64,000 bases of DNA. Source: an uncultured bacterium. Lineage in GTDB: Bacteria > Patescibacteriota > Minisyncoccia > Phycocordibacterales > CAIRYW01. Under the pieces are notes generated by a model. The model had not been told where the DNA came from. It made no database searches and saw only the letters and a list, made by a program, of their open reading frames with translations. The position numbers were made by a program, and so were the translations under genes. The stretch covers positions 4,352 to 68,351 of the forward strand of contig CAVYBO010000001.1 in the NCBI GenBank assembly GCA_963766885.1, given 5' to 3'. Shown here piece after piece: positions 33,304 through 49,904 of the stretch. Every line of letters starts with the position of its first letter. Positions within the stretch are counted from its first letter, which is position 1.

Positions 33304-33333
33304 ACCAAAGACTCAAGGTTGGGGTAAAAGCTC

Positions 33334-33462
33334 GGAATATAGATTGTTGCATCACCCAATCTCTCAAAAACAGTTCTAACATCCTCTACTACGTCGCCCA
33401 GCATTTTTTGAGCCCTATTTTTAAGTGTATTTTCTTATGGGTCTAAAGAGAATCGGACTTTT
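33334..33462 (+). repeat. Tail L (unit 3) plus spacer plus head R (unit 4)
   Basis: Spacer identical to the copy at 34461-34522. Confidence 0.7.
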
Positions 33463-33477
33463 GGTATACTTTAGGCT

Positions 33478-33726
33478 ATGAAAAAATATTTAACTCTAAA
33501 CAATGTTTTTCAAGTCTGTTTGGTTTTCTTTACTGTATTAGGATTTTTGCTTACAGGACTAAAAAACCCTAAATGGGGTTTGATTTTTAATCTTATAGCA
33601 GAAGTCTTTTGGGTATACTCTTCTTATAGAGCTTGGAAAGAAGCCAAACAGATAGGAATATTTATTACTACTATAATCATTACAGCCGTATTGCTTTATG
33701 GAGTATTTAATTACTGGTTTCTTTAA
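33478..33726 (+). CDS. Small two-TM protein; unit 4
   Basis: 82-aa ORF. Confidence 0.3.
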   Translation: MKKYLTLNNVFQVCLVFFTVLGFLLTGLKNPKWGLIFNLIAEVFWVYSSYRAWKEAKQIGIFITTIIITAVLLYGVFNYWFL

Positions 33727-33741
33727 AAACCAATTTATTTC

Positions 33742-34332
33742 CTACAAAGAAAACAATAGCTTGGTAGCCTCATATTGTGGTCTTACTTCTTCTCTAATAT
33801 CATCAAAGAATATTTTTCTGTTGAAATCTTTTTCTATTTTAGATAAGACCCATTTTTTGAAAGCATAATAATTTCCATCATCATTTTTACCCCAGTGTTG
33901 CCAGCAAAAGAAAGTATAGAAATCTGATTGAAAATGAGCAATTGAATCTGCTGTTGCAAGAACCTTGCCTTCAAGTGTTGTTGGTAAAATTTCCTTACAG
34001 CTGTGCGGAAGAATAATTTCATAAATTATGAAATCAGTTTCCTTCTGACTAAATTTTGTCTTTTCAAGAAGTTCACGGGCAATTCCAATACTTCTTTTCT
34101 CGTGATTTTCTTCAGAGCGTAGCATAACTGCGTCGGCTATATCGTGAAGCAGAGCACCAGCAACAACTTGTTCCACATCAGCATTCTTTTCTTTAGCAAT
34201 TCTTTCAGCGTTTTTTACCACGACTAAAAGATGATTCGGATAGCCCCAGAAATTCCAATAATCAGCACTTTCAAGATTAGACTTGTAGAGCTTTTCTACT
34301 TCTTGTTTTAGATTGTTTAATCTTGCTGTCAT
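33742..34332 (-). CDS. HD-domain phosphohydrolase; unit 4, antisense to the array
   Basis: H...HD motif LLHDIADAV; 196 aa. Confidence 0.65.
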   Translation of the reverse strand: MTARLNNLKQEVEKLYKSNLESADYWNFWGYPNHLLVVVKNAERIAKEKNADVEQVVAGALLHDIADAVMLRSEENHEKRSIGIARELLEKTKFSQKETDFIIYEIILPHSCKEILPTTLEGKVLATADSIAHFQSDFYTFFCWQHWGKNDDGNYYAFKKWVLSKIEKDFNRKIFFDDIREEVRPQYEATKLLFSL

Positions 34333-34393
34333 CTATTCATTTTATCGTAAATGTTGCTATCAAGCATTATATTCAGAGATGTGATGAAATGTT

Positions 34394-34522
34394 GGAATAT
34401 AGATTGTCGCATCATTTAACCCTTCAAAAACAGTTCTAACATCCTCTACTACGTCGCCCAGCATTTTTTGAGCCCTATTTTTAAGTGTATTTTCTTATGG
34501 GTCTAAAGAGAATCGGACTTTT
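34394..34522 (+). repeat. Tail L (unit 4) plus spacer plus head R (unit 5)
   Basis: ggaatatagattgtcgcatcatttaacccttcaaaaacagttctaacatcctctactacgtcgccca ... gggtctaaagagaatcggactttt. Confidence 0.7.
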
Positions 34523-34610
34523 AAAATAATCCTTTTGTTTATATCTATGTGTAATTGGATTAAACATAACTCAAACCTAGTTGTGATTTTATTGTTATAA
34601 TTCTAACTAT

Positions 34611-36443
34611 ATGAAAAATTATAATCCTGAATTATTAGAAGGAAATAATGGAGAAAGGACCGAAGAAAAACCTGAAGAAATCACTAATAATGAAACCCTA
34701 GAACCACAAGATAATCACTCGGAATTAGTAGATTTCAGTAAAAGATATTCTCGTGCTGGACGCAAAGAAATTGCTGATGAGATTCGGGAATTACGCTTTC
34801 AATATTTCAAAAAAGAAAAGGGAAATCCAGAACGCCAGGAGACTATTGCTGGCCAAGAAAAAAGCATCGAGGCACTTCAAAAAGAAAAGGATTTGATAGA
34901 AGAAGAAATCAGAGCCTTAGAAGATGAGGTAGAGCAGCAAAAGGCTAGCCTGTGGCATAAGATTTCATCTATGTTCCGCAAGAACGAGATAGAGCAAGAA
35001 TTACAGCTTGACCCCAAGAAAAAGAAACTTGAAGATTTAAAAAAAGATATTGAAGGCAGACTTAAAATAATTGGAGAGACGGAGAGCGTAATTTTAGATA
35101 TATCTTCTCTTGATGAAGCTAAGACTAAATTGGCGGAATTTTACAAAGAACAATCGGATTTAAAATCTTCTTTTGAAAGCGAAGAAAAAGAGCGTGATAT
35201 TGAAACCCTGTCAAAAGATAAAGGATATATTTTTCTACACGGCATTCCTACAAAAAATAGGAATATGAACAACACTGCTGAAAACAATCCAGCAATGAAA
35301 ACTAGCGGAATGAGCACTGAAGATAAACTCTCTTTGCTGATGGGATTAGAGCCAACTGTTTCAGCTTCAGTATTAAAAGAGGGTCAACAAGACGCACAAA
35401 CGTATTATACTTTCGGTGTCATTCTTGGTGGAGGTAAAGTATTAAGTGCATATAAAGAAGATTCAGGCACATTGGCTGAGAGTTTGTACAGTCGAAGGTC
35501 AAAATATGATAGAGAAACTAAACAAACAAGCATTCAACCAAATATTACTGCTCATTTAGATGAAGCTGTAAACGCACCTGTAGAATCAAGAAATTGGGGA
35601 AAATACAATGAAATTGTTGTAGAGCAACCAAAAGTGGCTGGATTATATATTAATTTATCCCAACTTAATAATAATTATGACCGAATTGGGATTGGCGAAC
35701 TGAAAAGATATTCTGAGATAATGAATTTGCCAATATACGCCTTAAAAGACGGAGAAATATATCCATTTGATATTGATAGCAAAATTGGTGTGATGGATGA
35801 CGGCAGAAAATATCAAAAAGAAAATGCATTTGAGGCAGAGGGAAATAAACTTTCGCTTGATAATGTAATTGATAGCCGAAGAGAAATTGGTCAGGAAGAA
35901 AAGCTGAAGTTGGCAACTTCAGTTATAGAGAAAAATCCTTTTCAGATTAGCACCGATGGAGAATATGAACTTTATAACGCTTACTCAAGAGGAACTTACG
36001 GTATATATAATTACAGAAAAGGATACGATAATCTTTTAATGGAACAAGAGCTTCATAAGAAAAGAATAGCAGCTGGTATTGAAGAAAGTGACCCAGGAAC
36101 ACCAGAGGATGTTCTCAAAAAAATGGAAGAGCGGTTGGAAGAATTAAAACAAAGAATTGCAGATGCTACCTCCAATGAAGGTAAAAATTTTACCAATAGA
36201 GACCTTAAAAAAGAACTGATTTCTTTATATGGTTTTGCACTTAACGCACAAGAAAACGGAGATGCAAAAACTTTTGATGCAGCCAAAAATATGATTGAAA
36301 AATACGGCTCGTTTGATGAATGTGCGAATTTAATTAAAAAACGAGTAGACGAAAAAGGAGATTTCAAAACATTAGATACAGATGTGCCGATTGAGATAAG
36401 AAAAAAGATGTCAGAATTAGAAGGGGTTAGTTCTGTTACTTAA
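34611..36443 (+). CDS. Large hypothetical protein with N-terminal coiled coil; unit 5 cargo
   Basis: 610-aa ORF, no recognisable catalytic motif. Confidence 0.5.
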   Translation: MKNYNPELLEGNNGERTEEKPEEITNNETLEPQDNHSELVDFSKRYSRAGRKEIADEIRELRFQYFKKEKGNPERQETIAGQEKSIEALQKEKDLIEEEIRALEDEVEQQKASLWHKISSMFRKNEIEQELQLDPKKKKLEDLKKDIEGRLKIIGETESVILDISSLDEAKTKLAEFYKEQSDLKSSFESEEKERDIETLSKDKGYIFLHGIPTKNRNMNNTAENNPAMKTSGMSTEDKLSLLMGLEPTVSASVLKEGQQDAQTYYTFGVILGGGKVLSAYKEDSGTLAESLYSRRSKYDRETKQTSIQPNITAHLDEAVNAPVESRNWGKYNEIVVEQPKVAGLYINLSQLNNNYDRIGIGELKRYSEIMNLPIYALKDGEIYPFDIDSKIGVMDDGRKYQKENAFEAEGNKLSLDNVIDSRREIGQEEKLKLATSVIEKNPFQISTDGEYELYNAYSRGTYGIYNYRKGYDNLLMEQELHKKRIAAGIEESDPGTPEDVLKKMEERLEELKQRIADATSNEGKNFTNRDLKKELISLYGFALNAQENGDAKTFDAAKNMIEKYGSFDECANLIKKRVDEKGDFKTLDTDVPIEIRKKMSELEGVSSVT

Positions 36444-36477
36444 TTTTATGAGATTTGTCCTTTAGGAAAGAATGTCG

Positions 36478-36606
36478 GAATATAGATTGTCGCATCATTT
36501 AATCTCTCAAAAATAGTTCTAACATCCTCTACTACGTCGCCCACGGTTTTTAAGCCTTATAAAATAGGTGTGATTTGGGTGGGGGTCTAAAGAGAATCGG
36601 ACTTTG
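36478..36606 (+). repeat. Tail L (unit 5) plus variant spacer plus head R (unit 6)
   Basis: ...cgtcgccca-cggtttttaagccttataaaataggtgtgatttgggtgg-gggtctaaagagaatcggacttt. Confidence 0.7.
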
Positions 36607-36619
36607 TTATACTAAATGA

Positions 36620-37174
36620 ATGTATGAAGTAGAATCCAAAGTTGAGATTACAGATAAAGAAAAGGAAAATCTTATTACCTTATTTAAGGAGAAAAATTTT
36701 CCATTTAAAGGTACTACTCCACAGAACGATTTTTATACTGAAGCCAGAGAATCACCACACGGTAGTTATGACGTGAAAAGATACAGGGAAGAAGGCGACA
36801 AATTTATATACACAGAAAAAATATGGGAAGTGGTAGATAATAATCCAGTAAGAAAAGAAACTGAACACGAAGTTTCTAAGAATGAATTTGCATCAGCGAT
36901 TGCTCAATTTCCTAATGCCGTAAAGATAAAGAAGCAAAGAGACTGGTTTGCCGCTAATTACCAAAATACTGACATAAGTCTAACTATAGACACTGTAAAA
37001 TTTGACCACTCTCCAAACACGAGATATTTTATTGAAGCAGAAATAGATGTTCAAGACAAGAAAGATGTCAAGAAATTCAAAGACATCATTATCCAATTCC
37101 TCAAAGAATTATTGAACAAATCGGAAATCATTGAAGCTCCAGGGATGTTTACGATGGCGTTTAAAAAACAATAA
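36620..37174 (+). CDS. CYTH-domain (triphosphate tunnel metalloenzyme; CyaB/ThTPase-like) protein; unit 6
   Basis: N-terminal ExExK signature MYEVESK; size and acidic residues consistent with CYTH. Confidence 0.55.
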   Translation: MYEVESKVEITDKEKENLITLFKEKNFPFKGTTPQNDFYTEARESPHGSYDVKRYREEGDKFIYTEKIWEVVDNNPVRKETEHEVSKNEFASAIAQFPNAVKIKKQRDWFAANYQNTDISLTIDTVKFDHSPNTRYFIEAEIDVQDKKDVKKFKDIIIQFLKELLNKSEIIEAPGMFTMAFKKQ

Positions 37175-37177
37175 ATT

Positions 37178-37633
37178 ATGCGAACCATAGAAAGAAAAAT
37201 TGCTACAGCTGTAATATTTTCAGCAGACGGAAAAATATTTCAAGGCCAGAAAGACCCATCAAAAGGAGGTGTATATAGAGATGGTTATTGGCACATTCCT
37301 GGAGGTGGAATAGAAGAAGGAGAAACGGTAGAACAAGCTTTAATAAGAGAAATAAAAGAAGAAACTGGTATTGATGTATCAAATATTAAAGCTATCTTGA
37401 TTGACGATAAAGGTGAAGGGGAATCAGAAAGAACTTTGGCAAACGGAGAAAAAGTAATTGCCAAAATGAAATTCTACGTATACAAAATTGTCTTGCCAAC
37501 AAACACGGAAGATACAGAAATTCACCTTAACGATGATTTGGTTAAATATAGATGGACTGACCCAAAAGAACTTAAAAACATAAAGCTAACTCCTCCTTCT
37601 GTAGAGTTGTTTACAAAGATGGGGTACCTTTAA
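37178..37633 (+). CDS. NUDIX hydrolase; unit 6, 4 nt after the CYTH gene
   Basis: Nudix box GGGIEEGETVEQALIREIKEETGI. Confidence 0.7.
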   Translation: MRTIERKIATAVIFSADGKIFQGQKDPSKGGVYRDGYWHIPGGGIEEGETVEQALIREIKEETGIDVSNIKAILIDDKGEGESERTLANGEKVIAKMKFYVYKIVLPTNTEDTEIHLNDDLVKYRWTDPKELKNIKLTPPSVELFTKMGYL

Positions 37634-37650
37634 TGGTTGTGCAAAATGTC

Positions 37651-37762
37651 GGAATATAAATTGTCGCATCATTCAAACTCTCAAAAATAGTCCTAACATC
37701 CTCTACTACGTCGCCCACTGTTATATTAAGCTAACGTTAGTGGGCAGTAATATTTCTTTTTC
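37651..37762 (+). repeat. Tail L (unit 6) followed by head type H (hairpin gcccact-N19-agtgggc)
   Basis: Same L+H junction recurs at 47884-48080. Confidence 0.65.
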
Positions 37763-37945
37763 TGACTTTGGTATCTGCTGTTAGCCTGATTCATAACCAG
37801 CAGATATTGACTAAATAAAATATTTCAGTAAGCTATACATACAAATGAAAACAACATTTTCAATTGCAAATAACCATCATACAGCTCTTACTTCAAGAGC
37901 TGGTGTTTGCCGTTGTTAATTTCTCTCTAAGAATTTCACAAAAGT

Positions 37946-37974
37946 AAAAACGAGCTCTTGTAAGAGCTCGTTTT
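37946..37974. terminator. Palindromic hairpin plus T-run upstream of hisG
   Basis: aaaaacgagctcttgtaagagctcgtttt. Confidence 0.5.
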
Positions 37975-38021
37975 GCTATGTAGCAAAATCAGTACATTCA
38001 ACAACAAATGAAAGGATAAGT

Positions 38022-38921
38022 ATGAAACAGATACCAATAAGCGTAGTAGTACCAGACGGTTCAATGCAACCAGTTGTAATGGACCTTCTTGCAAAAGCGG
38101 GTATGCCAGTGAAAGTGAGTAAACGGAGCAAAGAGGGAAAAATCGAAGGTGGTTGGATAGACAAGTTTTTCTTCCAACGGCCACAGGAAATTCCTCTCTA
38201 TCTCAACGCTGGCAATTTCGATTTAGCAATTGTCGGCGAAGATTGGATTGCCAACTGGGGATTCAAGTTTCCGGTTCTGCTTAAACTTCCGATTGGACAA
38301 AGTGGCAACAGAAAACCTGTGAAAATTGTTCTGGCAGTAAGTCAGGACAGCGGTCTCACACTGCTTCAGAATTTTCCACAGGGCTCTGAAGTTGCAACTG
38401 AATATGTCGAGTTGGCGAAGAGGTATTTCGCCAACAGATGTAGGTCAGATATTCGCGTCATGCCATCATATGGCAACACGGAACAAAAAATCCGATTCGG
38501 AGCAACAGCAATCATTGATGTAACTGAGACGGGAGAATCGCTTCGGGAAAACAATCTTGTAATTATTGACGAGATTATGGAATCAAACACCGTTCTGGTG
38601 GCCAATCCTGCGTCTCTCAACAATGAATACATTAAGCCAAACATGGATCTCTTCACCGAACTTGTCAAAGGAGCCTTTGAGGCTTCCGGATATGTTCTGG
38701 TGGTGTCGAATGTGCCCGAAAAAGTGCTCAAGAAGGTAAGTCGCATCCTTGGCGGCTTAAAAGGTCCTTCATGCTCGCCTCTTATCGGAAAAGGAAAAGG
38801 TCGTTTTGCACTGCAGTCCGTTATTCCAAGGGAGAAAGAACAGGAGGTTGTTCGCAACCTACGGCAAATTGGAGTGACAGACATCTTTGTGATCCGAGAC
38901 ATTCCTCTCATCATGAGTTAA
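38022..38921 (+). CDS. hisG: ATP phosphoribosyltransferase, long form (HisG) with C-terminal regulatory domain; unit 7 cargo, GC-rich
   Basis: DLAIVGEDWI and ATAIIDVTETGESLRENNL segments align with HisG signature regions; 299 aa equals long-form length. Confidence 0.6.
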   Translation: MKQIPISVVVPDGSMQPVVMDLLAKAGMPVKVSKRSKEGKIEGGWIDKFFFQRPQEIPLYLNAGNFDLAIVGEDWIANWGFKFPVLLKLPIGQSGNRKPVKIVLAVSQDSGLTLLQNFPQGSEVATEYVELAKRYFANRCRSDIRVMPSYGNTEQKIRFGATAIIDVTETGESLRENNLVIIDEIMESNTVLVANPASLNNEYIKPNMDLFTELVKGAFEASGYVLVVSNVPEKVLKKVSRILGGLKGPSCSPLIGKGKGRFALQSVIPREKEQEVVRNLRQIGVTDIFVIRDIPLIMS

Positions 38922-38949
38922 TTGTTTATTTGTGCTATGACACACAAAC

Positions 38950-39139
38950 CCACCTCGTTAAAACGAAGCGGGTATTTTTTTATTTAAAACTTTTTATCAA
39001 CTTCAACTTCTCTCTAACACCTGCCATATACTCCTGATCAGAAAGTATTGTTATAAAAGGGTAACCGTAGTCGCCCAGCATTTTTAAAGCCTTATTTTTA
39101 AGTATATTTTCGGAATGGGTCTAGAGAGAATCGGACTTT
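38950..39139 (+). repeat. Tail type B (unit 7: terminator hairpin, tatttttttatttaaaac..., ...ggtaaccgtagtcgccca) plus spacer plus head R variant (gggtctagagagaatcggacttt)
   Basis: Second copy of tail B at 49905-50034. Confidence 0.65.
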
Positions 39140-39143
39140 ATTT

Positions 39144-39518
39144 CTAATGGGAATGTCCTTCCTCTCTATTCAACTCATGCACCTGATAATGCACAAGTTC
39201 TTGCAAAGCGACATATCCGAAACGAATAATTACAGCTCCGATACCTACAGTCATCCATGAACATAAAATATTCAATAGAAATGAATAAGGAATATAAAAT
39301 CTGAAAGGTGGCAGCCAATCGTGCAGAGGATTGAAAATAATCACAAAAAATAAACTAATCCAGAAAGTAAAACAAAAACCGCAGTTCAATGCTTTCCTGA
39401 AAAACCATGGAAGGGAATGTGTAAACTGTTTTAGTTTGGGTAAATCGTGTAAAAGATTTCTCCAGAGCACTGCAATTCCTGCTATCGTTAAAATTGAAAA
39501 AATATAATCTGTGAACAT
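39144..39518 (-). CDS. Hypothetical integral membrane protein; unit 8, antisense
   Basis: 124 aa, about 4 TM. Confidence 0.4.
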   Translation of the reverse strand: MFTDYIFSILTIAGIAVLWRNLLHDLPKLKQFTHSLPWFFRKALNCGFCFTFWISLFFVIIFNPLHDWLPPFRFYIPYSFLLNILCSWMTVGIGAVIIRFGYVALQELVHYQVHELNREEGHSH

Positions 39519-39612
39519 TTAATTTTGCTTTTAATAATAAATTTTTAGATTCGTATAAAAATTGCGTTCGGAATTTCTTCCAAGAACGCAGTGTATTCGT
39601 GAGGTGTGATAT

Positions 39613-40263
39613 TTACACCAAACCGATTGCTTCGCCAGCTTCAGGTGAGATGCCCATGTTGAAAGGCATCCGCAAGCCGATGAGCAACATTGACTCCGAG
39701 AGTAGGTGTGACAGGAACGCTTGCGATGCTTCACCAATTGCGGTGTCATGCAAACGAACCATGATTCCACCGATGCCTTCCGCCGTCGCAGGCGCCACAT
39801 CACATCCGCAGTCGCAGTTGTGGTTGAGCACCATGCCAGTGTTGGCGTGGATGACGGATTGGATGTGCATGAACAACCGAAACACTTTGCCGATGGCGTG
39901 CAGGTGGGTATCAACCACAAACCATGGAAACGGCAGCTTGTCCTTCTGGCTGATGATGGTCGCATGCTGCTGCGGGTTCTCACGGGTGCCGAGATAACAG
40001 AGCGAATACCAGAGCGTGGAAGGAATCCGAGCTCCGAATTGTTCCGACAACTCGGCAATTGCCCTGACCATCGCTTGCTTCAGCTTGAAATCGGGGTCAT
40101 CGTGCCTGAAGGCGAAGTGATTCGGGTCAAAGGAGTTTGTGAACCCCAGTCCGACATAGTTGAGCATCACTTCGGCGACTTCGTGCATGTCCACGGTTTC
40201 GCCTTGAATGGTGACCCTGATGCCTTCGGCCGCGAGCATGAAGCCGCGAGCACGCAGAAGCAA
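39613..40263 (-). CDS. Hypothetical protein, GC-rich; unit 8, antisense
   Basis: 216-aa ORF; overlapping + strand ORFs judged antisense artefacts. Confidence 0.4.
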   Translation of the reverse strand: MLLRARGFMLAAEGIRVTIQGETVDMHEVAEVMLNYVGLGFTNSFDPNHFAFRHDDPDFKLKQAMVRAIAELSEQFGARIPSTLWYSLCYLGTRENPQQHATIISQKDKLPFPWFVVDTHLHAIGKVFRLFMHIQSVIHANTGMVLNHNCDCGCDVAPATAEGIGGIMVRLHDTAIGEASQAFLSHLLSESMLLIGLRMPFNMGISPEAGEAIGLV

Positions 40264-40541
40264 ATCGGGGTCAATGGTTTTCTCAAGACTCGGCCATGGT
40301 TCGGGAAGCCGAACGGGTTGACGCAGGTCAACGGGACGTAATCGCTGGACGGTAGTTTGGATGTAGTGGTAGTGACGGTAGTGTAGCAGTCATTGGATTG
40401 GTTGTTTGTGTTTTTGCCTCAAGATTCAAAGACCTTGTTTTGTAAATGCAAACGATTTGCAAATACCTTGCAATACTATACACAAACAAAAATGTTAATG
40501 CAAATGGTTTGCGTTAAGAATGAGTATCGGTTACAAACGCG

Positions 40542-40670
40542 GGAATGTAGATTGTTGCATCATTTAACCTCTCAAAAACAGTTCTAACATCCTCTACTAC
40601 GTCGCCCAGCATTTTTAAAGCCTTATTTTTAAGTATATTTTCGGATAGGTCTAAAGAGAATCGGACTTTT
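40542..40670 (+). repeat. Tail L (unit 8) plus spacer plus head R (unit 9)
   Basis: gggaatgtagattgttgcatcatttaacctctcaaaaacagttctaacatcctctactacgtcgccca...aggtctaaagagaatcggactttt. Confidence 0.7.
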
Positions 40671-40729
40671 CGTGAATTTCAACTAAAAAAGTTTCAACAT
40701 CGTATCAAACACCCAGTTCATTATAGAAA

Positions 40730-41074
40730 TTGCAAAAGCAATCTATATATGTAATATGGTGGTCAGATATGATTTATTATCCAACACCAGACAAGGCCGA
40801 GAGAACCGCTCTCCAGGTTGGGGATGTTATTTCAGTAACACTGAAAGGTGATGTGTCGGTATTAAGAGATAAGAACCCTCTAAAACTCGTCGAAGACGAG
40901 GAAAGTTGTGCTGGCTACTCGTTTCTCAGTACCCTACCTGCTAAAACGAAAATCACACACGATTTTGCTTTGTTTCTAGCAAGGCAGGTGGCTTCAATTG
41001 CCAATCTCGACGTTTCTGATGACATCCAGTTCACTGACGAAGGTTACTTTGCCTTCAATGTGATTCAAAGGTGA
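40730..41074 (+). CDS. Hypothetical protein; unit 9
   Basis: 114-aa ORF. Confidence 0.35.
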   Translation: MQKQSIYVIWWSDMIYYPTPDKAERTALQVGDVISVTLKGDVSVLRDKNPLKLVEDEESCAGYSFLSTLPAKTKITHDFALFLARQVASIANLDVSDDIQFTDEGYFAFNVIQR

Positions 41075-41181
41075 GTTTACGACTCACTATTTTTTATATA
41101 TGGATTTCACAATCTTCGTTCCAACATTGTCCCAAACCTCTCGTTTGACAGAAAGAATTTTTACGTATAGAAATAGGTTAA

Positions 41182-41484
41182 ATGCGCATTGTTTATTTCA
41201 CTTACGTGGTATCCATGGGAAGCCACGGTGGAGGTTATCGTCAGGGAGGAAGCAAACTGAAACACGGTTTGTTGAATTTGAAGAAAGGGGAATTGAGCAC
41301 ATTCTCACACTGCCAACCTCAAATTGAGCAGGAGTTGCAGAGACTGAACATTCAGTTCAGTGATATCGTCTCTCCGGATAGCAAACAGTTCAACGGTTCT
41401 CTGTGTTACCAATACATCACCGATGAAGCTGAAATTCGAGAACTTCAAGAGGACACCTCCATTGAAGTCCGTATTGGCTTCTGA
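41182..41484 (+). CDS. Hypothetical protein; unit 9
   Basis: 100-aa ORF. Confidence 0.3.
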   Translation: MRIVYFTYVVSMGSHGGGYRQGGSKLKHGLLNLKKGELSTFSHCQPQIEQELQRLNIQFSDIVSPDSKQFNGSLCYQYITDEAEIRELQEDTSIEVRIGF

Positions 41485-41552
41485 CTATCGTCACAATTTG
41501 TGGCGAATTTTTTTTATTTAAATCTTACTCAACTTTAATTGTATAAAAGCTC

Positions 41553-41690
41553 GGAATATAGATTGTTGCATCATTTAACCTCTCAAAAATAGTTCTAACA
41601 TCCTCTACTACGTCGCCCATCAGTGGATTTTTCTAAAATATCCTTACTGGGCTTAGACTTTTCAGTTCTAACCAACAGGTTGTTTTTAAT
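41553..41690 (+). repeat. Tail L (unit 9) followed by head type a' (copy 2 of 3)
   Basis: ...cgtcgccca-tcagtggatttttctaaaatatccttactgggcttagacttttcagttctaacc. Confidence 0.65.
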
Positions 41691-41767
41691 TATGGGGGAA
41701 ATGTCAGATACTATTTACTTTAAAATAAGTTATACTTTTTATTATTACGAGCTTAAAAAATAATCGT

Positions 41768-42355
41768 ATGAACAATTTTGAAGGTGCTTCCACACCACCT
41801 GAAGATGAAGAAATTACCGAGAGTGAAAAAATAGAAGCAACTGATGGTTCTGAAAAACCTTTAACGTATAAAGAGAAAACAGAAAGGTTTGAAAAATTGA
41901 TGGAGGAATTAAGGGCAAGTGTTAATGGTTATGAAGAAAAATTTGAGGGTGTGTTAAATTCTATACCTTCGCCCGAAGAGTTGAGCGAACGATATACATC
42001 CCAAGTAAACAGCCCAACTGATGCACTTTCGGGAGCCAAGCTAACTGCCCAGCTTATGTTGCTAAAAGTTGATATGTTGTATCAATACAAAGAATTTGCA
42101 CGCCGTAAGAGTAATCTAATTGATAACAGCAGTAGGAGTAAGCAGGACGCTTTTACTTTTTTCAATGTTCTACCATCCGAAGGTTCAATATCAAAAATTT
42201 TAGAAGGGATGCCACACTCTATTAAAAATGAGGGTATACTGGGCAACAATCTCAATGCCTTGATAGCAGATGAAGCATCAATTTTTTCTAAATTAAAAGA
42301 ATTGAAAGATTTAGACATCTCACCTCGCATTGCTGATATGGCTTATGAATCATAG
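41768..42355 (+). CDS. Hypothetical acidic/coiled-coil protein; unit 10
   Basis: 195-aa ORF. Confidence 0.4.
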   Translation: MNNFEGASTPPEDEEITESEKIEATDGSEKPLTYKEKTERFEKLMEELRASVNGYEEKFEGVLNSIPSPEELSERYTSQVNSPTDALSGAKLTAQLMLLKVDMLYQYKEFARRKSNLIDNSSRSKQDAFTFFNVLPSEGSISKILEGMPHSIKNEGILGNNLNALIADEASIFSKLKELKDLDISPRIADMAYES

Positions 42356-42381
42356 TTAAAAATAAATCAGAATTTACTACA

Positions 42382-43050
42382 ATGAGTATGGAAATGCCGA
42401 CAACAGAAGAATCAAGCGAAGAAGAGGGCGTAATAGACTCTAATCCAGAAAATCAACCAGAAGAAACACCCGAAGTAATTGAACCAGAAGATGAAGCCAA
42501 GAAATCTGAAGTGGTAGAATCAAATCTTGATTCTAAAAAAGAAAGAGTAAGAGAAGAAGAGTTGAAGGAGGGTATCATCACTGTTAAAACTAACTTATCA
42601 AGAATTTCTGAATTATTAGGAAACCTTGCTGGTGAATTTCGTCGCAGAGATAGTGATAGATACACCAAAATAGCAAACTCAACAGACTTTGCTAGGTGCG
42701 GAGAGCAAATAACAGAATTTCTCCATACTCTTTCTGCTGACCAAGTTGATGAATCTGTGGGCAAACTAAAAAACCTTGGCACTATTGCCGATTCATTTAG
42801 TAAAACAGTTTTAAGTATGAATACAGATAATTACCGAGGCACTATAAAGGAGGATGCCGCAAGTCTTTTTAGACTTAAAAGTATTTTTGAGCAAATGCCA
42901 GAATTTATTGGTCGCCTTAAAGATTTAAGTTTCAAGTCAAATCAAAAAGAATTTACTTCTCTGTTTGATTCCTTTAGGAAAATAGGTGAAGGAACTGAAC
43001 GGGCAAAAAATTTCCTAACTAGACTTGGAAATGCAGTTAAAAGAAGATGA
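42382..43050 (+). CDS. Hypothetical acidic protein; unit 10
   Basis: 222-aa ORF. Confidence 0.4.
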   Translation: MSMEMPTTEESSEEEGVIDSNPENQPEETPEVIEPEDEAKKSEVVESNLDSKKERVREEELKEGIITVKTNLSRISELLGNLAGEFRRRDSDRYTKIANSTDFARCGEQITEFLHTLSADQVDESVGKLKNLGTIADSFSKTVLSMNTDNYRGTIKEDAASLFRLKSIFEQMPEFIGRLKDLSFKSNQKEFTSLFDSFRKIGEGTERAKNFLTRLGNAVKRR

Positions 43051-43103
43051 GTCATATTTGGGATTGCATCATATAGTGAGTTGAGAGGTGGGGTAAAACG
43101 CAG

Positions 43104-43183
43104 GAATATAGATTGTCGCATCATTCCTCCTCTCAAAAACAGTTCTAACATCCTCTACTACGTCGCCCCCAAGAGAGAATTAG
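43104..43183 (+). repeat. Tail L (unit 10, core variant GTCGCCCC) plus degenerate head R remnant (aagagagaattag)
   Basis: caggaatatagattgtcgcatcattcctcctctcaaaaacagttctaacatcctctactacgtcgccccc. Confidence 0.6.
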
Positions 43184-43251
43184 TTGAGATAAACACTCCT
43201 TCTAGGAAACTATTTCGCTTTTTTATTTTTACCTTATAATGTAATGTAAAT

Positions 43252-43698
43252 ATGAATAAGTTTTCAATCACGTCTATAATTTTTTCAGTGGTATTTTTCC
43301 TGACTATGGCTTTTCTTACAACTTACGCGATTGCTGCGTCTATCGTGAGTTCCCATATCCATGTGATCAATAGAAATACTCTTAGTAAACCTTTTTCTGG
43401 TATAGTCGAAGGAACAGTCATTGCTACATCTACAACAAGTATAACAATTGATAAAAATATATATCTTGGTAGAACTGCTTCTTCTACAGAAATGACTTTT
43501 GTTTTGATGCCAAATGTCAGGGTACACGAGTATCACGGTGAAAGTGCATCCACAGGTATATCTATAGGATCATCTGTTTCTCTTGTTTTGGAACATCTGG
43601 GTAAAGATGAGGGGAAAGTTTTTGAGATACGGGTTTTGTGGAACGGAGAACATAGAAATGTTTTTACTCATACTGGCAAGAAAGCGAATACTATATGA
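43252..43698 (+). CDS. Hypothetical secreted/membrane-anchored protein; unit 11
   Basis: 148 aa with N-terminal TM; stop overlaps the start of the next gene. Confidence 0.4.
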   Translation: MNKFSITSIIFSVVFFLTMAFLTTYAIAASIVSSHIHVINRNTLSKPFSGIVEGTVIATSTTSITIDKNIYLGRTASSTEMTFVLMPNVRVHEYHGESASTGISIGSSVSLVLEHLGKDEGKVFEIRVLWNGEHRNVFTHTGKKANTI

Positions 43699-46600
43699 GA
43701 TATATAAAGAGTTTAAAATCGATAGTAGTATTTTATTTTCTTTTTATACTACTTGTTTCTTTTGGGTGTATTTTACAACCTTCGACAGCTCATGCTGATA
43801 CGGGACTGGTTGCAGAATGGACTATGGATGATGGGTCAGGAAATATTGCATCTGATTCGTCTGGAAACGGAAATGATCTTGATATAAACGGCAGCGCCAC
43901 ATGGGTGGCAGGTAAAATTCTTGGCGCACTTTCTTTTGATGGCAGTAGTAATTACGCGCACGACGATTCAACATTTAATACTACGCCATCTTCTACCATG
44001 AGCTTGTGTGGCTGGATAAAGACCTCGTCTCCTACAGCTCAGACTATTCTCAGTTTCGGGCGTAATCCAGGTAATTTTACCAACGAGGGTATTTTTAGTG
44101 TTTTGGCCAGCGGGTCAATTCAATTTTGGGACTACAGTAATGGCGGTGGTGGTTTAGGTTTTTCGAGCAGCGCTTCTGGCAGTACGGGCATAGTCGATGA
44201 TGGAAACTGGCATTCGGTATGTTTTGTCAAAAATAATACCGCAGGCACCTATTATATTGATGGAGTAGAAAGTGGTATCACGACTGCAGCAACGAACGTA
44301 GCTTATGACAATACCGACTGGACATTAGGAAAAGATTATCGCGACAACGATAACTATTTCGATGGTCTCATGGACGATATGCGCGTCTACGACATCGCAT
44401 TATCATCCAGTCAGGTCTACTTGCTTTATGGAATAGAGGGCTATTGGAAGTTTGATGAGGGGTCAGGTACGGTAGCCAATGATTCTTCAGGAAATAATAA
44501 TACAGGCACAATTGTAGGTGATCCTACGTGGACAACAGGAAAAGTAGGATATGCTCTTAATTTTGGAAATAATCAATATGTGAGCATTGCTGGTACGCCA
44601 ATTTCTACAGCGATTGCTTCTAGTAGTCAGATGACAGCGACCGCATGGGTATATGCAAATTCTGCCACACCGTGGGGTACCATCATAAAAGATTGGCCAG
44701 ATTATTCGGGCAATGACCAGTTCCATCTGGGCTTTGAAGGAACTACGACTAAAATTTCTGCATATATTGAACAAAGCAATGGCACTATTATTGGTCCTGT
44801 GGAAAGCACGAGCACCTTACCGCTCAATAGTTGGCACCTCGTTGCTATGACTGCAAACGGAAGTTCAACTCTTCTTTATATAGACGGAACGGTGGTTGCT
44901 TCGAGTACGTATGATGGAACCTTGCACCAAGGTGGAAATTATATCGGCATTGGTGCAAAGCTCGATGACACAGGTTTACCAAATGCAGATAACCCAGGTT
45001 ATTTTGATGGAAAGATAGATGATGTTCATCTGTATGATAAAGGACTTTTGCCTGATGATATTCTCACTCTTATGGAAGCTCCACCTGCTCAAGTATCGAA
45101 CCTTCAGGCAACAGGAACATATGCGGGCGGTTTCTCTCTGACGTGGGATCCAAACCCTGTGGGCGATAATGTCACGAATTATGTAATCCAATATTCTACA
45201 GATGGGGGTAATTCTTGGACTCCCGTCGATACTAATTCTAACAGCACAAGCTATGAGTTGAGCGGTATTGGTCCCGGGGACTATCTTTTTCAAGTCAAAG
45301 CCGTCAATACTGTAGGACAGGGTCTACCGTCTACTCAAGTGGAGATCAATTCACCAGCCATTACTTACACGCTGGGTAATGATTGTCTTGCTTTGGAACA
45401 TATTACGACTAATCCGGGCGATGCATATGGGCACTACATTATGTCCTCGAACATTGACTGCTCAGTTGTTCCGAATTTTTCACCGATCAATTTTTCTGTC
45501 TCAGGTTTTGGCGGCACATTTGATGGTGCGGGTCATACGATCACCAATCTCACCATCAGCACCTCAACTATTCAGAATGTTGGATTGTTTAGCCAAATTC
45601 AAAATAGCGGTACTGTAGAAAATCTAACACTTACGAATACCAATGTCACGAGCGGCGAAGCATATTCTGGAATTTTGGCTGGCTATAACAATGGTACTCT
45701 CCAAAATATCTCGGTCTCGGGCACCTCAACTGGTGTGTATGCTGTCGGAGGTCTTGTGGGACAAAACGATGCGCTTGGGGTTATTTCTACCTCAAGTGCT
45801 GATGTGTACGTCATTGCTGATAATAATAGTGGAAATGGAAATGTGGAAGAAGTTGGAGGCTTTGCTGGAGAGAGCGAGGGATCGATCAATGGTTCCCATT
45901 CATTAGGGACAGTTACCAATGCGACGGGTTCTGAAGATTTTTATTATGTGGGAGGCTTTGCTGGCTTTCAGGGTGGTGACTTCACCGATGACTATGCTAC
46001 AGGGCCGATTATCGTAAACGCTGACTCTTCAGGAGAGTCGGATTATATCGGAGGTTTTGTGGGGTATGCCGGCAGTGCCGGATCCATAGATCATTCTTAT
46101 GCTACTGGAAATATCACTGATCCAGATGATTATGTTTATGAGATCGGTGGTTTTGTGGGGGAGTCGAGGGCTCCTCTTAGTGATGATTATGCGACGGGTA
46201 ATATATACGACGATAATGATAGTAACGTCGGCGATTCCTTCTATCTCGGTGGCTTTGCCGGTGGGAGCGATGCGGGTGCGATAAGTAATTGTTATGAGAC
46301 AGGCTCCATCACCATAGCTTTTCCTCAAGATTTTTATTATGTGGGAGGCTTTGCAGGATATACTGAGAATGACGAAATCAGCCAGTCCTACAGCACTGGC
46401 AATGCAGAAGGCAACGAAGCTGTCGCTGGTTTTTCAGGATATAATGAGGCCCTACTTTCTCAGGTCTATTCAAGTGGTAATGTCGTTATGTTTGGAAGTG
46501 GTCCGACATATGCTGGTGGTCTTGTGGCCGACAATGAGGGTGATATAAACGATGCTTTTTCCACAGGCAATATAAGTCTAGATAGCGGAGTGACGGGTAG

Positions 46601-47801
46601 TCCGACAGCGATTGGCGGACTGATCGGTAACAATTCTGATGCAAATATAAATCGAGCATATGCTTCTGGTGATATATCTGCTGGAACAAATAGTTCTTAT
46701 GTTGGTGGCCTCGTCGGGGCAGACTATCAGAATGGTAATGGTATAACAAATTCATATTCAGTCGGTACGGTAAGTGGAGGTACTGACGTTGGAGGATTGA
46801 TTGGCTTTGAATCTATTCAAAGTGCCGGCAATCCTTCATATACCGATTTGGCTTGGTACACTGGGTCGGCTAGCGATGTTGTCGGAGATTTTCTGAGTAA
46901 TAACGGCTCTACGGACAACGGTCCTATATTAAATCTTACTACTGGCGGCTATGGTACCGATGAGAATATAATATCGAATTTCTATGACACCACTGAACCA
47001 GTTTATGCGCAGGGTCAGATGGGTGCATGGGATTTCAGCTCGATTTGGGAATCCCATAAGAATACTTTTCCAACCTTTCAGTGGTTTAGCGCAGCCACTT
47101 ACACTATAACTGCAAGTGCAGGAACTGGTGGTGTCATAAGCAATGAGGGGAGTCTGTCGGTTTTAGATGGTTCAAACCAAAGTTACAATATTACTACGGA
47201 TAACGGTTACACCATTGCAGACGTACTTGTGGACGGTTTGTCTGTTGGTGCTGTTTCTAGTTATACATTCTCAAATATTAGTGCATCACACACCATCTCA
47301 GTAACTTTCTCTGCGATTTTGTCACCGAATGTTTCTCGAAGTGGAGGAAGCGTGCAAAGCCAAGTAAATAATTTAAACTCTTTTGGTGATATAGCAGCTG
47401 CTCAGGTTTTGATAAATCAGTACCCGTATCTTTTCAAAGATTCCACAGCGAGTTCTGGTACAGTTAGTTCAATCCAAGCTCAAATCGCACAACTTCAACA
47501 AGAACTAGTTTCTTTTGGAGACAGTACAACAACCACTGCAACCACAACAGAACTTTTAAGCAATGGCCCTGATTTATATTTTGGTTTAAGTAATCACAAG
47601 GTTAATCTACTACAGCAGTTTTTGGTTCTGGAAGATAAGGGGCAAGAAGCCAATGCTCTGGAGAAAAACGGTTTAACAAATTATTTCGGTAAGCTAACAA
47701 GAGCTGCTTTGGCAGAGTTTCAAAAATCAGTAAGTATAAAACCTGCCGCTGGATATTTTGGTCTGAAGACAAAGGCTTACTTGAAATTGTTAGGATATTA
47801 A
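43695..47801 (+). CDS. Giant (1368 aa) secreted surface protein: two LamG/concanavalin-like domains, an FN3 domain, about 15 GLUG-motif repeats, C-terminal peptidoglycan-binding-like domain
   Basis: Signal peptide; ...LSFDGSSNYA/NFGNNQYV (LamG-like); PPAQVSNL...YVIQYSTDGGNSWTPV (FN3); repeated VGGFAG/IGGFVG/VGGLVG; C-terminus resembles PG_binding_1. Confidence 0.6.
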   Translation: MRYIKSLKSIVVFYFLFILLVSFGCILQPSTAHADTGLVAEWTMDDGSGNIASDSSGNGNDLDINGSATWVAGKILGALSFDGSSNYAHDDSTFNTTPSSTMSLCGWIKTSSPTAQTILSFGRNPGNFTNEGIFSVLASGSIQFWDYSNGGGGLGFSSSASGSTGIVDDGNWHSVCFVKNNTAGTYYIDGVESGITTAATNVAYDNTDWTLGKDYRDNDNYFDGLMDDMRVYDIALSSSQVYLLYGIEGYWKFDEGSGTVANDSSGNNNTGTIVGDPTWTTGKVGYALNFGNNQYVSIAGTPISTAIASSSQMTATAWVYANSATPWGTIIKDWPDYSGNDQFHLGFEGTTTKISAYIEQSNGTIIGPVESTSTLPLNSWHLVAMTANGSSTLLYIDGTVVASSTYDGTLHQGGNYIGIGAKLDDTGLPNADNPGYFDGKIDDVHLYDKGLLPDDILTLMEAPPAQVSNLQATGTYAGGFSLTWDPNPVGDNVTNYVIQYSTDGGNSWTPVDTNSNSTSYELSGIGPGDYLFQVKAVNTVGQGLPSTQVEINSPAITYTLGNDCLALEHITTNPGDAYGHYIMSSNIDCSVVPNFSPINFSVSGFGGTFDGAGHTITNLTISTSTIQNVGLFSQIQNSGTVENLTLTNTNVTSGEAYSGILAGYNNGTLQNISVSGTSTGVYAVGGLVGQNDALGVISTSSADVYVIADNNSGNGNVEEVGGFAGESEGSINGSHSLGTVTNATGSEDFYYVGGFAGFQGGDFTDDYATGPIIVNADSSGESDYIGGFVGYAGSAGSIDHSYATGNITDPDDYVYEIGGFVGESRAPLSDDYATGNIYDDNDSNVGDSFYLGGFAGGSDAGAISNCYETGSITIAFPQDFYYVGGFAGYTENDEISQSYSTGNAEGNEAVAGFSGYNEALLSQVYSSGNVVMFGSGPTYAGGLVADNEGDINDAFSTGNISLDSGVTGSPTAIGGLIGNNSDANINRAYASGDISAGTNSSYVGGLVGADYQNGNGITNSYSVGTVSGGTDVGGLIGFESIQSAGNPSYTDLAWYTGSASDVVGDFLSNNGSTDNGPILNLTTGGYGTDENIISNFYDTTEPVYAQGQMGAWDFSSIWESHKNTFPTFQWFSAATYTITASAGTGGVISNEGSLSVLDGSNQSYNITTDNGYTIADVLVDGLSVGAVSSYTFSNISASHTISVTFSAILSPNVSRSGGSVQSQVNNLNSFGDIAAAQVLINQYPYLFKDSTASSGTVSSIQAQIAQLQQELVSFGDSTTTTATTTELLSNGPDLYFGLSNHKVNLLQQFLVLEDKGQEANALEKNGLTNYFGKLTRAALAEFQKSVSIKPAAGYFGLKTKAYLKLLGY

Positions 47802-47883
47802 ACTTTTTAAAATAATGTAATTACTTTCCGGATTACCTGGTTACTGGAGACGAGAAAGGGATTAAACAACACTTGCTATAGTT

Positions 47884-48080
47884 GGAATGTAAATCGTTGT
47901 ATCATCTAACCTCTCAAAAACAGTTCTAACATCCTATCACAAGGGCACTTCTTGCTTACGGCAGTAGCTGATACCCGAGAGCGGTACTAATTCACTATGT
48001 TCATAAGTAAACAAAGTCGTCTACTACGTCGCCCACTGTTATATTAAGCTAACGTTAGTGGGCAGTAATATTTCTTTTTC
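47884..48080 (+). repeat. Tail L (unit 11) interrupted by an 85-nt insertion (47936-48020), followed by head type H (copy 2)
   Basis: cagttctaacatcct | atcacaagggcac...aaagtcgt | ctactacgtcgccca-ctgttatattaagctaacgttagtgggcagtaatatttctttttc. Confidence 0.65.
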
Positions 48081-48167
48081 TAACAATTTTCTATAGAAAT
48101 CTTTAATAATTTTTTTTGTTGATTCTCAATTTACCTGGTGGTAGTATGGCCGAGGTAAATTTGAACT

Positions 48168-49514
48168 ATGAAAAAAATAACCTATCGATATCACCACCGA
48201 GGGGTCGTTACCGGAGGTATTTACCCACCGGACCGATTTCTCTACACGGATCCAAAGACAGGAGAGATCTTGCTTGTGGAAAGGGATGAAACCTACATCA
48301 AGCGGAAAATTGGCACTGGGCGCGACGCACAAAATCATTTCGACGGACTTCGGTTTGGACCGCAGCGTCGGAATTATCCGAACAACTCGGGTGTCTGGCT
48401 CTGGAGGCAATTCATTCTCCCAGGTTTTCCGAAAGAGGCAATTGTCTCCTTGAACGAAGGTCAGACGGATCTTTTCGAGGTTCCCGGCTGGCTGAAAAAG
48501 GAGATTGGTCTCAACAACCTCTTCATCAAGATGGAGGGGCGGTCGCCGAGCGAGAGCTTCAAAGACAGGGGAATGCCTGTGGCGGTGTCGGACGCACTCC
48601 GACTCCAGCTTCTCAATCCGGAACATCCGATCGTCGGAGTGTGTTGTGCTTCCACCGGGGATACTTCGGCTGCGGCGGCAATATATGCTGCTTACTGTCG
48701 GGACAAACTTTCCTGCGTGGTCTTACTTCCGTTTGAGAATATTTCAGACTCGCAACTCTTTCAGGCTATTGCTCACCGCGCCAATGTCATTGCGGTAAAG
48801 CACCCTGACGGTTTTGATGGCTGTATGTATCTCATCAGGGAGTTTCAAAGAGACCATCCGGAATATGTTCTCGTCAACAGCGCGAATGACATGCGCGTCG
48901 TGGGACAGGAGACTATCGGACTCGAGATCATTCAGGACTTGGAGTGGAAGGCTCCGGACTGGATTGCGATTCCCGTCGGTAACGGCGGTAATCTCACTGC
49001 ACTCATGATCGGCCTGCTCCGGGCAAAAGAGTTCGGTCTGATTGATCGTCTGCCGGGCATCATCGCGGCCCAAACCGAATCTGCCGATACTCTGGTGCGC
49101 TGGCAAGGAAGCGGCTATCAGCAGTATCAACCGGGAAAGTTGCAAAAGTCCGTGGCAACCGCCATGAACATCAACGATCCGGTTTCCTTTCCGCGCATCA
49201 AATCTCTTCACGATCAATTCAACATCCACTTCATTGCGGCTGGCGAATTTCAGATCAAGAAAACATGGGCGCGGTTCATGGGAGCGGGTGCAAACATCTG
49301 TCCACAGAGCGCTGTTGCTCTTTCGGCGGTGTTGCAAGCGCGAGCAGTCGGAGTGGTCAAAGAGGACGACATGATCGTTTCAATTTCTACGGCGTCTGGG
49401 ATTAAGTTTTCGGAGGCTGGAATAGCGTGGCACAAGTCTGCTGTTGACGATTCTTGTAACCCATACAAGGTGGTCTCCGGCAATCTGCACGAAATTGAAG
49501 CGGCGCTAAAGTAG
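48168..49514 (+). CDS. Threonine-synthase-like PLP-dependent (fold type II) enzyme; unit 12 cargo, GC about 55%
   Basis: SFKDRG lysine motif at about residue 110; 448 aa; Gly-rich PLP-phosphate loop. Confidence 0.6.
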   Translation: MKKITYRYHHRGVVTGGIYPPDRFLYTDPKTGEILLVERDETYIKRKIGTGRDAQNHFDGLRFGPQRRNYPNNSGVWLWRQFILPGFPKEAIVSLNEGQTDLFEVPGWLKKEIGLNNLFIKMEGRSPSESFKDRGMPVAVSDALRLQLLNPEHPIVGVCCASTGDTSAAAAIYAAYCRDKLSCVVLLPFENISDSQLFQAIAHRANVIAVKHPDGFDGCMYLIREFQRDHPEYVLVNSANDMRVVGQETIGLEIIQDLEWKAPDWIAIPVGNGGNLTALMIGLLRAKEFGLIDRLPGIIAAQTESADTLVRWQGSGYQQYQPGKLQKSVATAMNINDPVSFPRIKSLHDQFNIHFIAAGEFQIKKTWARFMGAGANICPQSAVALSAVLQARAVGVVKEDDMIVSISTASGIKFSEAGIAWHKSAVDDSCNPYKVVSGNLHEIEAALK

Positions 49515-49618
49515 GTAATTGCAAACTCGGTTTGCTGCGCAGATTAAACGCTGCGCAATTTTTATTATTTGAATATTCCTTGTAATTTTAAATGTAAAAT
49601 GTATAGTTTTGTCTGAAT

Positions 49619-49885: not shown

Positions 49886-49904
49886 AACAATTCTTTATTT
49901 CGAA

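Follow-up and report, generated by a model that had tools for sequence, protein, structure and literature searches.

Recurrent cassette heads in a proposed integron-like gene array at the tRNA-His gene of an uncultured Paceibacterota bacterium

The DNA analyzed here is a 64,000-nucleotide (nt) stretch (the window) of contig CAVYBO010000001.1 (assembly GCA_963766885.1, positions 4,352 to 68,351), which derives from an uncultured bacterium. Its PolA is 72% identical to proteins of Candidatus Paceibacterota, and by sequence the host is assigned to this group of the Patescibacteria, or Candidate Phyla Radiation (CPR). CPR bacteria have tiny genomes and are thought to be host-dependent symbionts; to our knowledge, the gain and exchange of accessory functions in these organisms is poorly understood. 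In the window, a tRNA-His(GTG) gene is followed by an array of 13 gene cassettes on the same strand (Table 1). A sequence of ~70 nt directly downstream of the tRNA, termed head A, recurs twice within the array, and its meaning is the subject of this analysis.

The last 8 nt of tRNA-His (31126-31133) read GTCGCCCA and constitute the first core of the array. This 8-mer occurs 13 times in the window (0.69 expected), always on the + strand and always within 31126-50719, and a fourteenth core at 43162-43169 reads GTCGCCCC. We propose that the core at the tRNA 3' end is the primary recombination site. The cassettes measure 452-4866 bp and share one form: a head, one or more cargo genes, and a tail that ends in the core. 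Eleven cores are preceded by a tail of ~80 nt, L1 (consensus GGAATATAGAT..ATC..CTCTCAAAAACAGTTCTAACATCCTCTACTAC, then the core), which was detected by nhmmer with E-values of 1e-22 to 1e-25 for ten intact copies and 5.7e-14 for a split one. Two cores follow a different tail, L2, which is always coupled with a head of class C. Each of the 13 copies of the 9-mer AGTTCTAAC in the window (0.45 expected) lies on the + strand inside the array, 10 of them in tails and 3 in heads A.

The cargo is diverse. Pfam identified RibD_C, S-adenosylmethionine (SAM) methyltransferase, HD, CYTH plus NUDIX, HisG, Laminin_G/GLUG surface protein, PALP plus ThiS and P-loop kinase proteins, and several open reading frames (ORFs) had no match. 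The G+C content (GC) of individual cassettes ranges from 0.316 to 0.482, compared to 0.38 in the flanks. All 10 cargo proteins tested were singletons at 90% identity, and the window had no cargo in common with the other arrays described below. The spread in GC and the singleton cargo show that the cassettes are of mixed origin, in support of the recombination favoured below. A search of solved structures with a 610-aa cargo protein returned nothing. Cassette 11 encodes a 1368-aa Laminin_G_3 / fn3 / GLUG protein (43695-47801) with internal repeats of ~96-102 nt (45835-46357); a big surface protein can therefore be cassette cargo. An Rfam scan of 30-52 kb, assessed by E-value, found no known RNA families beyond two tRNAs, and the defence-system models of PADLOC gave generic domain-level matches only.

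Each of the three head-A copies abuts an exact GTCGCCCA core (31126-31133, 41612-41619 and 50027-50034), while the sequence upstream of the core differs in each case (tRNA, L1 tail and L2 tail). The initial annotation had noted by eye that the sequence following tRNA-His recurs at 41620 and 50035, and this was borne out. In gapped pairwise alignments over ~72 nt, copies 1 and 3 were identical at 62 of 74 positions (84%), copies 2 and 3 at 58 of 74 (78%), and copies 1 and 2 at 54 of 75 (72%). The alignment scores of 27-46 lay far above those of mononucleotide shuffles (mean ~-6, sd ~4, maximum 8). A 22-mer, CTTAGACTTTTCAGTTCTAACC, is exact in all copies (at 31166, 41652 and 50067) and had no further match in the window even at 3 mismatches (0 expected). 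An equal spacing to a downstream ATG, which had also been claimed, holds for copies 1 and 3, where the ATG lies 69 nt from the core and opens a real ORF (RibD_C protein and P-loop kinase, respectively). It does not hold for copy 2, which departs from the others past ...TCTAACC: its nearest ATG (41692) is 72 nt off and opens merely a 23-codon frame, the cargo ORF starting at 41768. The tight inverted repeat TCTAAC-ct-GTTAGA reported for copy 1 is present at 31182-31195. Copy 3 has an imperfect version of it, and AACC-aaca-GGTT stands in its place in copy 2, the 5' part of which is able to fold into a small hairpin (dG -8.2 kcal/mol, z -1.1). The proteins encoded downstream of the three copies are unrelated to one another.

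Table 1. Coordinates of the tRNA-His gene, cassettes, heads and tails in the window. Promoter elements are proposals.
Feature	Position	Strand	Remarks
tRNA-His(GTG)	31061-31133	+	G-1 at 31060; ARAGORN; Rfam tRNA model 64.7 bits
Cassette array	31134-50719	+	13 cassettes; 13 exact GTCGCCCA cores and one GTCGCCCC
Cassettes 1-5	31134-31991, 31992-32443, 32444-33400, 33401-34460, 34461-36543	+	
Cassettes 6-9	36544-37717, 37718-39077, 39078-40608, 40609-41619	+	
Cassettes 10-13	41620-43169, 43170-48035, 48036-50034, 50035-50719	+	
Head A, copy 1	31134-31202	+	before RibD_C gene (ATG 31203); promoter elements predicted from sequence
Copy 1, -35-like TAGACT	31168-31173	+	proposed
Copy 1, AGTTCTAAC box	31178-31186	+	proposed
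Copy 1, TG	31188-31189	+	proposed
Copy 1, -10-like TAGAGT	31191-31196	+	proposed
Head A, copy 2	41620-41690	+	5' two thirds conserved; -10/ATG part diverged
Head A, copy 3	50035-50103	+	before P-loop kinase gene (ATG 50104)
Copy 3, TG	50089-50090	+	proposed
Copy 3, -10-like TAGGCT	50092-50097	+	proposed
L1 tail upstream of head A copy 2	41541-41619	+	nhmmer, alignment
Other L1 tails	31913-31991, 32365-32443, 33321-33400, 34383-34460, 36465-36543, 37639-37717, 40532-40608, 43090-43169, 47881-48035 (split), 50643-50719	+	nhmmer
L2 tail upstream of head A copy 3	49920-50034	+	
Second L2 tail	38964-39077	+	84% identical to first
Heads B	33401-33464, 32444-32506, 34461-34523, 36544-36607, 39078-39140, 40609-40672	+	
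T-arm 13-mer AGTCCGATTCTCT in heads B	32489-32501, 33447-33459, 34507-34519, 36591-36603, 39125-39137, 40655-40667	-	
Heads C	37718-37786, 48036-48102	+	paired with tail L2

As the window species has no close relative in the databases, comparisons of array units rest on the arrays of other organisms. The MPG glycosylase adjoining tRNA-His was matched at 100% on the source contig alone; its relatives, at 66-68% identity, have other neighbours. An exact 25-mer of the tail had one match in the genome collection, contig L001 from a Tara Oceans metagenome-assembled genome (MAG), in which tRNA-His is followed by a single cassette (Fic protein and 156-aa ORF) with the same tail end. Exact 25- and 29-mers had no match in the metagenomes of the Joint Genome Institute. 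The gapped pattern CAGTTCTAAC-N12-GTCGCCC matched 48 metagenome contigs; 26 of these agree at 8 or more of the N12 positions and conserve the entire tail. The tail occurs in at least 27 contigs (26 metagenome contigs and one MAG), with 53 unique tails and, according to an nhmmer profile built from the window tails, up to six copies per contig. In 11 contigs tRNA-His lies directly upstream of the first cassette on the same strand, and in all 12 tRNA-linked arrays the heads start exactly past the core at the tRNA. No match to tail and head was found in phage, plasmid and IMG/VR collections; two IMG/VR matches to the gapped pattern were chance matches. A full-text literature search, with incomplete journal coverage, returned no description of tRNA-His cassette arrays in CPR bacteria, and the arrangement, which many uncultured Patescibacteria have, is apparently new to the literature.

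Two details of the other loci may be added. In L001, the 18 nt past the core (ATAAGATGACTTTCAGTT) are identical at both cassette ends (2681-2708 and 4264-4291), giving a flanking repeat of 26 nt rather than 8. A gene for a YibE/F-like membrane protein adjoins tRNA-His divergently in L039, L049 and L053 and lies a few kb past the array in L022; it is a conserved neighbour and no recombinase.

The wide distribution bears on the possibility that the array is an assembly artefact, with repeats mis-joined or collapsed in a MAG contig and the order and copy number of heads unreal. The array is repeat-rich, and the one other contig carrying a tested cargo protein, a 964-bp Logan unitig of the same sample (L004), breaks at the tails. 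Run ERR11630394 from the source sample contains the same cassette. However, independent assemblies from many samples have the same architecture, always with tRNA-His at one end, the cargo is unique to each cassette, and the head-A copies differ among themselves. Cassettes might be mis-ordered in a MAG, yet this would not create heads. We regard an artefact as extremely improbable.

Comparison of arrays indicates that cassettes are units of exchange. L021 and L038 have one cassette of 796 bp in common (91% identity) with different neighbours, and the downstream core is exactly where the homology stops. Two adjacent cassettes are common to L024 and L038, which have different cassettes upstream of them, and L038 and L046 are 99.8% identical over the tRNA and four cassettes before diverging at the core. 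In L049 and L053, the cargo, -10 box and tail of one cassette are 88% identical under heads of different classes; the 5' part of the head is thus exchangeable. The tRNA-His T stems of L038 (1-121) and L046 (1-120) differ by compensatory changes (CCGGG/CCCGG vs CAGAG/CTCTG), and it seems that either the array or the 3' portion of the tRNA was transferred from one background to another.

The initial annotation had suggested that each head-A copy could mark the start of an independently integrated larger element (31134-41619, 41620-50034 and 50035-50719). On this reading, the copies would be the left ends of large composites that entered as units at tRNA-His, and the array would consist of three nested super-elements. 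Head A does occur after the tRNA and at two further places; related arrays have blocks of 2-4 cassettes in common, which could be inherited or moved jointly; and both proposed large units hold one head-C/tail-L2 cassette. However, each head-A cassette closes at the next tail and core (31991, 43169 and 50719). Two of them carry single genes: the first is a complete head-cargo-tail unit of 858 bp, and the third proposed element is a single cassette of 685 bp. The chromosomal flank from 50720 on is not head-A-like. Moreover, head A is no tRNA-proximal flank, considering that 13 internal class-A junctions were found, some of them consecutive, and that other genomes have other head classes after tRNA-His. 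Since arrays exchange single cassettes that have different neighbours and homology ending at the core, composite elements are unnecessary, and we consider them very unlikely.

The first ~100 nt past the core fall into recurrent classes across all arrays. Class A heads combine a short palindrome (or hairpin) with a TTTNAGTTCTRRC box, situated ~45 nt from the core, and end in a promoter-like sequence; long versions have an additional T-arm-like inverted box. Class B heads have a T-rich start, an inverted T-arm-like box and frequently TGGTATACT. In class T heads, a strong hairpin is followed by the acceptor and T arm of tRNA-His in inverted form. Directly after tRNA-His we found class A in the window, L038/L046, L039 and L051, class B in L053, and class T in L012, L022, L030 and L049; each of these classes is also seen after internal tails. 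A motif count gave 17 unique class-A heads (4 after the tRNA, 13 internal), with the cargo forward in 12 of 13 scorable cases. In L008 and L024, class-A heads stand at consecutive or alternating internal junctions, those of consecutive cassettes in L008 being 629 bp apart.

The window contains three heads A, six heads B and two heads C, the remaining cassettes having unique heads. In every head B, a 13-mer from the T arm of tRNA-His is repeated exactly in inverted orientation (7 copies against 0.06 expected), and in three of the six (32444, 33401 and 36544) TGnTATACT follows the T-arm box a few nt before an ATG. The T-arm match extends to 17 nt at 39121-39137. These copies carry the unusual TCCGA T loop of the host, where class B elsewhere reads TTCGA, which suggests that head B and host tRNA have co-evolved. 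The two cassettes combining head C with L2 (37718-39077 and 48036-50034) encode HisG and PALP plus ThiS and have a higher GC (0.41 and 0.48); in head C a small hairpin (GCCCACT..AGTGGGC) takes in the core. A single L2-like tail was found in L027. In addition, L022 (176-373, oriented) and L010 (~60-160, oriented) contain mini-cassettes of ~200 bp with a class T head and no ORF, whose tails copy the tRNA end (...CCCAGTAGCCGCCCT); they could be cassettes that are empty, or remnants.

The 3' half of head A in the window aligns with the heads of L008 (two), L010, L040 and L046. TGnTAnnnT followed by 6-7 nt and ATG is present in 7 of 8 aligned short A heads, and (A/T)AGAC(T/A) precedes TGnTAnnnT at a spacing of 17 nt. 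Among junction-proximal ORFs, 18 of 42 have TGnTAnnnT 5-9 nt before the ATG, compared to 9 of 58 control ORFs (Fisher p = 0.003). We take this geometry to mean that head A is probably a promoter, and that the cassette gene it drives is leaderless. The exact 22-mer would then comprise the -35-like box and its spacer, and the inverted repeat TCTAAC-ct-GTTAGA would overlap the extended -10. In such a promoter a -35-like box, a 17-nt spacer with AGTTCTAAC and an extended -10 (TGnTAnnnT) would be followed by 6-7 nt to the ATG, and every head-A cassette would be transcribed from its own promoter as leaderless mRNA. As the spacer and the L1 tails have the AGTTCTAAC 9-mer in common, this box may also be bound by a protein in heads and tails alike; together with the T-arm-like boxes of other head classes, it may bind the recombinase. 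The initial annotation had offered, as an alternative to composite elements, a mobile promoter or attI-like module. The promoter part of this proposal is close to the mark and nearer to the evidence than composites, given that the promoter-like module recurs in other organisms 6-7 nt before the ATG. The head is not strictly attI-like, because it does not define the primary integration site.

The tails are conserved across genera. Among the 53 unique copies the last 40 nt are at least 90% conserved, and in every genome with an array the tail end equals the last 6-8 nt of tRNA-His, (GT)CGCCCA. Where the local tRNA ends in TAGCCGCCCA, the tails nonetheless end in ACGTCGCCCA; the shared core is therefore CGCCCA, 6 nt. 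In the junction consensus, conservation is restricted to the left of the core, and the first ~10-16 nt of the heads are variable. Inserts occur in some tails. The split L1 tail holds 81 nt between ...AGTTCTAACATCCT and TCTACTACGTCGCCCA, and tails in L029 (two), L022 and L030 are interrupted by different inserts at the same point, just past the AGTTC box. Either long variants of the site or tail-targeting insertions could account for this. We also considered the tail as a decayed tRNA-His, on account of D-loop-like (GGTAAAAC) and T-arm-like boxes visible by eye. Global alignment with tRNA-His was marginal (80 and 124 of 2000 shuffles scored equally; p ~0.04-0.06), and descent of the tail from tRNA-His is therefore not claimed.

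The identity of the core with the last 6-8 nt of the tRNA, the single orientation of the sites and the breakpoints at the core point to site-specific recombination within the core. We consider it probable, though well short of certain, that the head-A copies are the heads of three cassettes of the same class in an integron-like array at the tRNA-His 3' end, driven by a recombinase encoded elsewhere in the genome. This enzyme would catalyse a crossover inside the core that joins the tail-core-head site of a free cassette to the end of the tRNA or of any tail. Cassettes would be inserted, excised and shuffled singly or in blocks, the head moving together with the cargo downstream of it.

Several observations weigh against this interpretation. 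Pfam analysis of nearly all window ORFs of at least ~190 aa and of the cassette ORFs revealed no recombinase gene, and none was seen in ~90 ORFs of other loci scanned with Pfam and NCBIfam, among the 25 most frequent of 66 families. Lest a weak singleton match escape this listing, phmmer searches were added with XerD, gamma-delta resolvase and IS608 TnpA as probes (verified as family members by Pfam); the best E-value was no lower than 0.24 among 1944 six-frame ORFs from the window and 54 loci. Neither the window nor the related loci, which total ~350 kb, thus yielded a tyrosine or serine recombinase or a Y1 transposase, and hence we infer the enzymology entirely. No classical two-armed tyrosine-recombinase core site is visible, the head starts not being conserved, and neither excised circles nor empty sites nor variants within the population were observed for this genome, which is without a close database relative. 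As to the promoter, the motif is short and 16% of control ORFs carry it as well, and head-A copy 2 lacks the -10 and ATG part. A generic sigma-70 promoter scan was not enriched (44 found, 49 expected) and is uninformative here; the promoter argument rests on the TGnTAnnnT-to-ATG geometry.

An alternative account dispenses with a dedicated recombinase. Tails and heads would serve as intergenic modules conserved for expression or processing, with the heads A as paralogous promoter regions, and cassettes would be exchanged by homologous recombination involving the ~80-nt tails and the conserved tRNA gene, for instance following the uptake of DNA. None of the ~27 arrays has a recombinase nearby, the tails are long and conserved enough, and the window encodes a homologue of the type IV pilus protein PilM, making DNA uptake possible. 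The homology between shared cassettes begins ~36 nt inside the upstream tail, which fits crossovers in the tails as well as at the core. However, every tail ends like the 3' end of tRNA-His, even where the ending is TAGCCGCCCA in the tRNA and ACGTCGCCCA in the tails, and the heads start exactly past the core at the tRNA in 12 of 12 arrays. An identity of 6-8 nt is typical of the overlap region of tyrosine recombinases and too short for homologous recombination. Furthermore, the acquisition of a tail by unrelated cargo would be left unexplained, and no secondary structure of the tails, whether as RNA or as DNA, hints at a terminator or processing signal. We judge this account unlikely as a whole; homologous exchange between tails may nevertheless contribute, though it does not explain the core.

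A single-strand mechanism was weighed as well, in the form of attC-like hairpins used by an IntI-like enzyme, or of non-autonomous IS200/IS605-type elements placed 3' of a fixed target by an HUH transposase. Insertion is always 3' of one short sequence and in one orientation. Heads B and T hold the inverted T arm or acceptor end of tRNA-His, class T forming long palindromes with the tRNA end, and the head C hairpin includes the core (z -1.0 and -2.2). On the other hand, single-stranded DNA folds of 8 window junctions gave z-scores of -2.2 to +2.1, classes A and B being no better than shuffles (-1.1 to +2.1), and RNAalifold found no consensus structure of the 53 tails on either strand. Folding of the attC kind was rejected on these grounds. 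The R''/R' boxes (RYYYAAC / GTTRRRY) are absent, and the window and 54 loci contain no ORF resembling IntI, Xer or Y1 transposases. The tails also lack the hairpin of IS200/IS605 elements, including palindrome-associated transposable elements (PATE), and the IS608 TnpA probe reached a best E-value of 0.88 in the window and 54 loci. Overall, a single-strand mechanism appears improbable, and strongly so.

Site-specific recombination within the core invites comparison with integrons and with CALINs, which are clusters of attC sites without an integrase, intI not being required by definition. As in these systems, the array is one-directional, with 13 cassettes and all sites on the + strand; the cassettes are small, mostly of 1-2 genes, and their cargo is diverse and largely unknown. 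A conserved recombination site bounds each cassette, with crossover apparently at a short shared core, and single cassettes are shuffled between arrays, a mobility deduced from mosaicism. The absence of an adjacent integrase resembles CALINs; IntI or Phage_integrase was not found in the window ORFs, and the XerD-type probe gave 0.24 at best. There are also clear differences. The primary site is the 3' end of tRNA-His, in place of the attI that adjoins intI in integrons. The site carried by the cassettes is linear and conserved in sequence over ~80 nt; it has neither a hairpin nor R''/R' boxes, and its core is GTCGCCCA instead of GTTRRRY, whereas attC sites conserve structure and not sequence. 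Many cassettes appear to have their own promoter-like head, in contrast to the reliance of integrons on the promoter Pc, and the host belongs to the Patescibacteria.

Tandem tRNA-targeting elements (genomic-island accretion, cis-mobilizable elements (CIMEs), and the tycheposons of Prochlorococcus with their integrase-less remnants) likewise integrate at tRNA 3' ends. The tandem units here each end in a tRNA-derived copy of the core, (GT)CGCCCA, and integrase-less units would need an enzyme in trans. They differ from such elements in measuring 0.45-4.9 kb and having no mobility genes, in a repeat of 6-8 nt rather than tens of nt, and in the ~80-nt tail, which is conserved across genera and not detectably tRNA-derived. 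Moreover, no integrase-bearing parent was present in the ~27 arrays. Xer modules (pdif of Acinetobacter plasmids and integrative mobile elements exploiting Xer (IMEX) at dif) also place small cargo modules between short recombination sites and use a housekeeping recombinase from elsewhere; as in these modules, no enzyme gene is linked to the array. In contrast, the junctions here contain no dif-like 11-6-11 site with inverted arms, the sites are all direct where pdif sites alternate, and the anchor is tRNA-His instead of dif.

There is about an even chance, in our estimation, that Paceibacterota have their own gene-capture platform, analogous to the integron and built from different parts: an insertion site at the tRNA-His 3' end, a linear cassette site of ~80 nt, leaderless promoters carried by the cassettes and an unlinked recombinase, perhaps of an unrecognised family. 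If so, it would be a second, independently built answer to the problem that integrons solve, and comparison of the two would show which features of a cassette system are essential; heads A would be the expression module of one widespread cassette class. The tRNA-His array, which occurs in many independent assemblies, would provide a dedicated route of gene flux in the large CPR radiation, with cargo encompassing nucleotide and cofactor enzymes, kinases, methyltransferases, Fic, HD and NUDIX proteins as well as the surface protein of cassette 11. The conserved 29-40 nt at the tail end provide a handle for mining CPR cassette pools from metagenomes by PCR or from reads.

A further observation concerns a different part of the window. 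Directly 3' of a tRNA-Arg(TCT) gene, the region 18467-21822 encodes a 203-aa ORF that matched no family, an N6/N4 DNA methyltransferase and a TdeIII-type restriction enzyme. Its GC is 0.32, compared to 0.386 for the whole window, and it looks like a separate small island at another tRNA gene.

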